Below are positions 48,680-49,248 of a DNA stretch of 64,000 bases, piece after piece (positions within the stretch are counted from its first letter, which is position 1; the number at the start of each line of letters is the position of its first letter). A program made the position numbers and the translations under genes. The DNA is from Octopus vulgaris. Lineage: Eukaryota. The notes below the pieces were generated by a model. That model had not been told where the DNA came from. It was given only the letters and a program-made list of their open reading frames with translations, and made no database searches. The DNA is taken from contig OX597814.1 in NCBI GenBank assembly GCA_951406725.2, positions 24,986,001 through 25,050,000 on the forward strand. The letters run 5' to 3'.

Positions 48680-48801
48680 ATATATATATATATATATATA
48701 TATATATACACATATATATAATTGTTAAACAGGATGTGAAGCATTAAGGCGAGGCAAAAATATCAAGCCATATACAATATTATTACAGGAAGAAATTAAA
48801 A

Positions 48802-48857
48802 ATCTTACAGCTGTTTCACAGATATCCTCAAGTATGGGATATTCCATCATCAGAGAC
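48802..48857 (-). ncRNA. Type I hammerhead ribozyme motif
   Basis: GUCU-CUGAUGA-[AUAUCC/GGAUAU stem II]-GAAA-CAGCU-GUA-AGAU. Confidence 0.7.
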
Positions 48858-49111
48858 AAATTGGGGGAAAAATATGGAAAATGAGAATGGTATATATCAA
48901 TAAGATGATAACAGAGAGGAAGGGAGTAAAAGAATAAGGAGATGGAAAGAGAGAAGAAAAGAGACATAAAAGTTCATAGTTCAGCTTTCCAAAGTTATTG
49001 AAATGAAAGCATGAGTCCTTAGGTGCAATCCTGCATATATCCATGTGTGTATGTCTTTAGGTGCAATCCTGAGTATATCCATGTCAGTATTCCATATTTT
49101 TTCCTCGATTT

Positions 49112-49167
49112 GTCTCTGATGACAGAATATTCCATACTCTAGGATATCCCTGAAACAGCTGTAAGAT
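49112..49167 (+). ncRNA. Type I hammerhead ribozyme motif
   Basis: GUCU-CUGAUGA(49116-49122)-stem II-GAAA(49152-49155)-CAGCU-GUA-AGAU; palindromic ACAGCUGU stem III. Confidence 0.7.
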
Positions 49168-49248
49168 TTTGAATTTCTTCCTGTTATAATATTGTATATG
49201 ACTTGAGATTTTGCCTTGCCTTAATGTTCGATGTCCTGTTTAACAATT

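Follow-up and report, generated by a model that had tools for sequence, protein, structure and literature searches.

Anatomy of the 530-bp element

In the window, by which we mean the whole 64-kb stretch of Octopus vulgaris DNA analyzed here, a 530-bp element with two inverted arms lies between two (TA)n tracts (Table 1). The earlier note had described this arrangement, with one outward-facing hammerhead ribozyme in each arm, and alignment of the arms confirmed it. The arms (48720-48879 versus 49090-49249) were 87% identical over ~160 nt, with 155 of 177 aligned letters matching in a gapped local alignment; the proposed inversion thus stood, whereas the proposed arm length of ~165 bp was reduced to about 159 bp. 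A different repeat of very high copy number (48482-48678) has the left (TA)n tract at its end.

Assignment of the long arm to the terminal part of a Penelope-like element (PLE) is based on many genome copies that match positions 1-364 of the query at 84-89%, and on longer copies in which this sequence is preceded by PLE coding sequence. What appeared to be a spacer between the arms is further 3' UTR sequence of this PLE. It contains a tandem duplication (49015-49052 versus 49053-49090, 87% alike), for which a period of 38 bp was measured instead of the ~28 bp suggested before, and whose second unit is interrupted by the inversion junction. The same duplication is present in the UTR of other family copies and was therefore inherited. 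The window copy of the PLE includes no part of an ORF, and neither a PLE protein remnant nor a long host ORF was seen within the 64-kb window.

Table 1. Features of the two-armed element and its (TA)n flanks (positions in the window)
Feature	Position	Strand	Description
Left (TA)n target tract	48678..48720		43 bp; 21.5 copies, one CA interruption
Long arm	48721..49084	-	Last 364 bp (3' UTR/pseudo-LTR) of a Hydra-type PLE; 5'-truncated; without the optional 141-nt tail
Minimal type I hammerhead, minus	48802..48857	-	Core intact; predicted cut between 48806 and 48805
Two units of 38-bp tandem repeat	49015..49084	-	Part of the 3' UTR of the PLE family
Head-to-head inversion junction filler	49085..49089	.	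5 nt; common to no other junction examined
Short arm	49090..49247	+	Inverted 158-bp copy of the same pseudo-LTR end; more strongly 5'-truncated
Minimal type I hammerhead, plus	49112..49167	+	Core intact; predicted cut after 49163
Right (TA)n target tract	49248..49353	.	106 bp; 53 perfect copies

State and predicted folding of the hammerheads

The hammerhead position numbering used here is that of A9, G10.1-C11.1, and G12. The intact CUGAUGA/GAAA core, GUCU/AGAU stem I, palindromic stem III, and GUA triplet named in the earlier note were all located by coordinate. In the plus hammerhead, stem I is formed by GUCU (49112-49115) and AGAU (49164-49167), CUGAUGA occupies 49116-49122 and GAAA 49152-49155, and the palindrome ACAGCUGU (49155-49162) runs into the GUA triplet (49161-49163); the minus hammerhead has the same parts at 48857-48802. 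Both show what defines the minimal type I class, namely a core of CUGANGA, GAAA, and UH together with stem I, stem II, and a stem III that is palindromic, and their reading as PLE-type hammerheads is supported. A hammerhead descriptor found two matches in the window, one per strand, and none in 100 shuffled 64-kb windows; it was composed after the motif had been seen, and its two matches, being a sequence and its inverted copy, are not independent. Searches of Rfam returned no hammerhead, either over the whole window at the gathering score or over 48400-49400 at E<=1, where the only matches were sub-threshold, microsatellite-driven miRNA hits.

Decay is apparent in stem II. In the majority sequence of the family, A9 is followed by an additional C, stem II is closed at its base by a G-C pair, and an A left unpaired precedes G12; such unpaired letters flanking the stem II base on both sides recur in the published Hydra and PLE-X1 tables (PMC8557442). 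At this base, the minus hammerhead of the window has a G.G mismatch in place of the majority G-C pair, and the plus hammerhead has an A.C mismatch along with two further stem II changes. Hence, the G10.1-C11.1 pair is absent from both window arms, while it was kept in 42 of 60 other arms. Among these 60, the 12-nt core was intact in 33, and core and G-C pair together in 27. The window arms differ from the family majority at 6.3% and 8.3% (family mean, 8.9%). Over the family, 36 core changes were counted in 708 positions, compared to 46 expected from base-matched flanks (P=0.08), an expectation that rises to 63 if subfamily-dimorphic columns are kept. These counts are compatible with selection in the source elements followed by near-neutral decay, and some selection may have acted on the core, at least in source elements.

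The RNA of the full element is predicted to form a single hairpin on either strand (-250 kcal/mol for plus, -229 for minus), with -212 kcal/mol computed for the arm duplex. The computed pair probability of stems I and II was 0.000 in the full element on both strands, and likewise in partial transcripts that stop just past the core, since the cores face outward and transcription of either strand reaches the antisense arm earlier than the ribozyme. For the arms taken alone, stem II was almost unformed in the plus arm (computed probability, <=0.02), and in the minus arm stem II was predicted to form (0.6-0.96) but stem I was not (0.01). The ACAGCUGU palindrome has a computed intermolecular pairing energy of -11.1 kcal/mol, as the dimer model requires, and the element supplies just one sense hammerhead copy per strand. 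Both ribozymes are likely inactive in this copy according to these folding models, in which the antisense arm made first and the broken stem II base account for the predicted failure to fold. The hairpin, previously thought of as a switch for cleavage, is better read as a permanent off state, and cutting of a host pre-mRNA by either hammerhead is unlikely, given the decayed stem II. Contigs from putative RNA runs that align to 48482-49247 derive from many family copies, with none of those listed spanning the locus, and are uninformative about this copy.

Other repeats in the window

The repeat adjoining the element on the left (48482-48678, minus) is likewise flanked by (TA)n, measures ~200 bp, and matched its top 40 genome hits at 93-97% identity. 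Near 48611-48573 it contains a minimal hammerhead-like motif with a GUUU/AAAC stem I, a 3-bp stem II, and a palindromic AACGUU, whose core mostly reads CCGA in place of CUGA. A 22-letter motif of this repeat occurs 14,070 times in the genome; among the first 100 matches listed, 73 have CCGA, 24 the canonical CUGA, and 3 CCAA, and the window copy carries two core changes. The U4C substitution has been reported to lower hammerhead activity (PMC3088659). This repeat is possibly a PLE-mobilized short element.

An isolated CUGAUGA ... GAAA motif at 15892-15855 (minus), with a 5-bp stem II bearing a basal mismatch and a decayed stem III, is probably the end of a further PLE-type repeat. At 42909-43554 (plus), two overlapping frames resemble a decayed LINE reverse transcriptase fragment, which we take to be RTE-like.

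The parent is a Penelope-like element, probably of Hydra type

With the element as query, the own genome (2.8 Gb) yielded 1941 first-look candidates, 40 of which were scored. Apart from the window, 5 of these 40 matched the query from end to end (78-79%, gapped). Most matched only the first 330-364 positions, i.e., the left arm and the "spacer," and the outer end was common to all. On the strand of the left hammerhead, the copies stop at one point and are followed there either by (TA)n or by a 141-nt extension, which in turn runs into (TA)n or a related simple repeat.

Longer copies revealed what lies upstream of the arm: a 3' UTR of ~1.1 kb, a GIY-YIG nuclease (EN), a CxCx5C linker, and a reverse transcriptase (RT), all on one strand. 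Among 18 stretches examined for the coding parent, many of them broken or interrupted and 5 without the arm, the order RT-linker-EN-UTR-arm-tail was complete on one strand in L081, which also has an inverted arm at its 5' side, and was present in parts in L082, L086, L089, L090, L091, L097, and L098. The arm follows RT, EN, and 3' UTR in L081, L086, L089, L090, and L098, and in L097 an inverted arm is fused to a truncated RT. A coding PLE with the same arm, the existence of which the earlier note had made a point to check, was thus found in the own genome, contiguous with the arm. RNA-mediated spread of the sequence, also proposed there, is upheld by the arm being the 3' end of an element encoding RT and GIY-YIG nuclease. 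An intact full-length family copy and the RT N terminus were not recovered among the copies examined; L081, though 5'-truncated, already covers ~3.2 kb between an internal point of the RT and the tail. Hydra-clade elements are generally <3 kb, so that this family would be longer than typical.

The RT fragment of L091 retrieved four homologs of 534-724 amino acids (E values from 4e-28 to 2.5e-21), each consisting of an RT and a C-terminal nuclease with a CxCx5C motif. The EN fragment of L047 was 35% identical to one of them, P0001 (pairwise E value, 7e-19), and the nuclease fragment resembled GIY-YIG clusters in Atlas (0.94-0.95). A Pfam search with nine decayed fragments gave no significant RT or GIY-YIG match, and a homolog search with a 130-amino-acid nuclease fragment found none.

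Elements of the Hydra clade are defined by CxCX5C, by CxxC and CxH where the nuclease ends, by a hammerhead toward the 3' end, and by insertion into (TA)n (PMC8557442); RWK and DKT motifs in the N-terminal part and a nuclease devoid of a CCHH motif are further traits of the clade. In the octopus family, the CxCx5C linker ahead of the C-terminal nuclease was recognized in translations of L046, L047, L058, and L083; CxxC and CxH are present around the nuclease end; clade features were also read by eye in translations of L055, L058, and L045; and insertion into (TA)n was observed at the family's 3' junctions. Inspected by eye, the GIY-YIG core has no internal CxxC pair, with two lone cysteines in several copies, and the L091 RT motifs follow the published Hydra alignment (PMC8557442). 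From such motifs and by-eye comparison of alignments, the family is provisionally classified as a Hydra-type PLE. The Neptune clade was considered and set aside in view of CxCX5C, the Hydra definition. In agreement with EN+ PLEs, RT and GIY-YIG run in one direction upstream of the pseudo-LTR (pLTR) in L081, L091, and others, and a fixed 3' end, variable 5' truncation, an optional tail, and inverted 5'-truncated pLTR copies were all found. EN+ PLEs also form direct partial tandems, in which a direct pLTR lies ahead of a full copy; in L082, a direct arm with tail precedes a truncated EN copy, and a full-length tandem was not recovered.

The RT/EN sequence beside L015 looked like the parent at first but was set aside, as it reads like a different PLE-type sequence abutting the arm, 34% identical to the L091 RT. 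It belongs to a different Hydra-like family, the 5'-truncated RT/GIY-YIG part of which (L015:1823-3060) starts where the arm breaks off. A long Asn/Thr-rich low-complexity stretch separates RT and CxCx5C linker in L081 (3714-5114, minus), L046, L058, and L083, and is reminiscent of the N-rich inserts reported for Penelope ORFs of rotifers (PMC3846280). L083, L084, and L085 (G000:C1, 157.2-157.5 Mb) are three very similar copies within 300 kb, likely part of a segmental duplication.

Fold-back junctions differ from insertion to insertion

The exact 18-letter hammerhead motif occurs 229 times in the genome, with 0 occurrences for the control. Its first 30 matches in genome order represent 29 loci, 5 outside the family and 24 within it. 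Of these 24 family loci, 9 were single-armed and 15 had an inverted piece, always head-to-head and at the 5' side, and 8 had two hammerheads, in a sample that by its motif-based choice over-represents two-armed loci. The five loci outside the family (L103, L108, L111, L112, and L124) carry the 18-letter hammerhead-end motif without matching the family references, and may represent related PLE families in which stem III is the same.

Over all fetched loci, window included, we counted 43 distinct head-to-head junctions, the ~140 loci covered being part of a family whose size lies between hundreds and a few thousand. Break points near -366/-158 are specific to the window (0 of 42 other junctions), arm lengths vary across the family from <20 to >400 bp, and by a coordinate test 11 of the 43 junctions have no complete hammerhead in either arm. 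Junctions that appeared to be shared (L003/L014; L018/L102; L165/L177/L181/L183) differ in sequence. Copies with the same two-arm architecture and fixed ends, anticipated in the earlier note, were therefore not what the family showed, as most features vary and the window junction is unique among the 43. Together, the unique junctions, the variable arms, and the junctions devoid of a hammerhead imply that each fold-back arises anew upon insertion, with or without the ribozyme.

Arms of the same locus were on average slightly more alike than arms of other copies (0.867 versus 0.839; 11 pairs, Wilcoxon p=0.007). For neither window arm is the other one the nearest relative (ranks 22 and 34 of 78), which would be consistent with old neutral decay and is no proof of it. 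Five independent short fold-backs (L165, L168, L177, L181, and L183) turn ~55-82 nt before the pseudo-LTR end, in a zone close to an AATATT palindrome that is likely a hotspot.

Origin of the inverted arm and the one-sided tail

We conclude, with a probability of roughly nine in ten, that the 530 bp comprise the last 364 bp of a PLE and a head-to-head inverted 158-bp copy of its end, which likely arrived in a single insertion into (TA)n and have likely been dead since. In such an insertion, the element nuclease would nick both strands of the (TA)n tract, and reverse transcription would begin at the pseudo-LTR end, where the nicked target could anneal to TATATAT of the element RNA. The inverted arm would then stem from a second cDNA, started either on the other strand or by the first cDNA folding back. 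By analogy with known PLEs, the hammerhead may have served the RNA of the parent element as a dimer formed via the ACAGCUGU palindrome, probably with the element's protein. In a Poseidon PLE, both target strands are cut and extended, two start sites bracket the tail, and the hammerhead depends on the element's protein; insertion in vitro can proceed without the hammerhead (PMC11167929). For inverted junctions, self-priming has been proposed (PMC3846280).

Distribution of the 141-nt tail bears on how the two arms are connected. In 39 of the 43 junctions, one arm and not the other bears the tail, and no junction has it on both. Restricted to the 20 junctions with readable ends that had not been picked by the tail, 18 have one tail and 2 have none, compared to ~10 one-tail junctions expected if the arms were independent (P=1.7e-4). 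This one-sidedness suggests one coupled reaction for both arms. In addition, the short arms of L009, L015, L019, L114, and L115 contain nothing but tail sequence and overlap the other arm slightly or not at all, an outcome that simple self-priming of a single cDNA is unable to produce. We tentatively consider, at somewhat less than even odds, a twin-priming route in which both (TA)n strands prime on the element RNA, one at the internal TATATAT and the other 141 nt further, and the two cDNAs are joined head-to-head. If true, twin priming would explain both the tail on one arm and the short arms consisting of tail alone. The twin-priming idea comes from L1. A literature search for Penelope together with twin priming found, by title and abstract, no paper on a PLE mechanism. 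In a search with the tail, for which 30 of 40 scored loci were read, no copy continued into the 5' part of the element.

The window junction itself is one of two tail-less junctions among 31 with both ends readable, and the commonest route may thus not apply to it. Here, the proximal site might have been used twice, or the first cDNA might have folded back.

Alternative explanations

The earlier note regarded the fold-back as a mobile retrozyme-like unit with a hairpin switch; such a unit would be transcribed, its RNA cleaved by the hammerheads, and the product returned to the genome by the PLE enzyme. Two-hammerhead fold-backs are indeed common among the motif-picked loci (8 of 24), both 12-nt cores of the window are intact compared to 33 of 60 in other arms, and pLTR sequence alone is able to mobilize other sequence in trans (PMC3846280). 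Yet a unit of fixed two-arm design is disfavored by the window junction, which is single among 43 with no two junctions identical where checked, and by fold-backs arising with or without a ribozyme, as the 11 junctions lacking a complete hammerhead illustrate. Moreover, retrozymes are head-to-tail tandems (PMC7229834), and a stem pair probability of 0.000 was computed for the full element. We therefore deem this proposal very improbable, although fold-backs may be re-mobilized on rare occasions, given the ~140 loci covered.

Slightly less credit still is given to an inversion arising after insertion, either by two back-to-back insertions or by a DNA-level fold-back or deletion between neighboring copies. 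The family hits the same (TA)n tracts repeatedly, and the window arms, just 87% alike and not mutual best matches, could be seen as separate arrivals; but there is no (TA)n at the junction, inverted pieces occur in 15 of 24 loci and always head-to-head, and the restriction of the tail to one arm in 18 of the 20 junctions not picked by it (P=1.7e-4) is hard to obtain from unrelated events. As for a MITE, with the arms as terminal inverted repeats for a DDE transposase inserting at TA, the resemblance consists in inverted termini with TA on both sides. It conflicts with an arm that is the 3' end of an RT/GIY-YIG element and contiguous with its coding sequence, with frequent single-armed, 5'-truncated copies, and with arm lengths from <20 to >400 bp over 43 distinct junctions, and we give it next to no credence. 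A single PLE insertion with a freshly made inverted arm thus remains the preferred reading.

Significance

The window contains a decayed insertion of a known class, and the arrangement of two arms with two hammerheads is already in print. A single locus of this kind matters little. It does call for caution, as MITE-looking, ribozyme-bearing hairpins in (TA)n may be by-products of PLE insertion. The origin of PLE inverted repeats is named as unresolved in PMC8557442, and the family's unusually long tail, which makes the two ends of each insertion distinguishable, is useful for tracing it. The tail asymmetry and the neighboring repeat with its variant hammerhead core are what most deserve attention.

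Comparison with known systems

PLEs commonly carry inverted 5'-truncated pLTRs and a tail on one side only (PMC8557442, PMC8969392, PMC3846280). Closest to the octopus family are the Hydra-clade PLEs of Craig et al. 2021 (PMC8557442), which are alike in RT, CxCx5C linker, C-terminal GIY-YIG nuclease, (TA)n targets, and 3' hammerhead; their hammerhead, too, leaves one letter unpaired on either side of the stem II base, and its stem III is palindromic. Among them, Penelope-13_HM is reported with an inverted 5'-truncated copy and a hammerhead on each strand, like the window element. The octopus family differs from the Hydra PLEs described there by its long Asn/Thr-rich stretch before the linker, its ~1.1-kb 3' UTR, and its tail of 141 nt versus 30-40 bp given for PLE tails. 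The hammerhead motif listed for Hydra-1_Obim is unlike that of the window's family, and a 14-letter piece of the latter is absent from the accessible text of the PMC8557442 supplement. The unlike hammerhead marks a family separate from Hydra-1_Obim, possibly one already catalogued in Repbase/Dfam.

Minimal hammerheads of metazoan PLEs (Cervera and de la Pena 2014, PMC4209133) are alike in being type I with a short stem I and a long stem II, in the extra nucleotide after A9, in the palindromic stem III, and in residing mostly in truncated copies. In Schistosoma, dual minimal hammerheads have been reported 100-700 bp apart on opposite strands, an arrangement seen in some cases. The same paper reports low in vitro activity for PLE minimal hammerheads and none for the tested Schistosoma motif as a monomer. 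Unlike those hammerheads, the window arms have lost the conserved G10.1-C11.1 pair. Poseidon PAc of Anolis (Frangieh et al. 2024, PMC11167929) represents a different clade, with a hammerhead overlapping the ORF start, and its described priming is not homologous to the target, whereas in the octopus family TATATAT follows the proximal end within the element.

Non-LTR retrozymes (Cervera and de la Pena 2020, PMC7229834) are likewise non-coding, hammerhead-bearing, and related to PLEs, but form head-to-tail tandems that yield circular RNA (PMC7229834; Li et al. 2026, 10.64898/2026.07.22.740005). The window element, in contrast, lacks a repeated unit: it folds back once, head-to-head, and offers a single sense ribozyme on each strand. 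With MITEs it shares small size, lack of coding sequence, terminal inverted repeats, and TA flanks; unlike MITEs, the family has no fixed length or junction, its copies are frequently single-armed, and its parent encodes an RT and a GIY-YIG nuclease.
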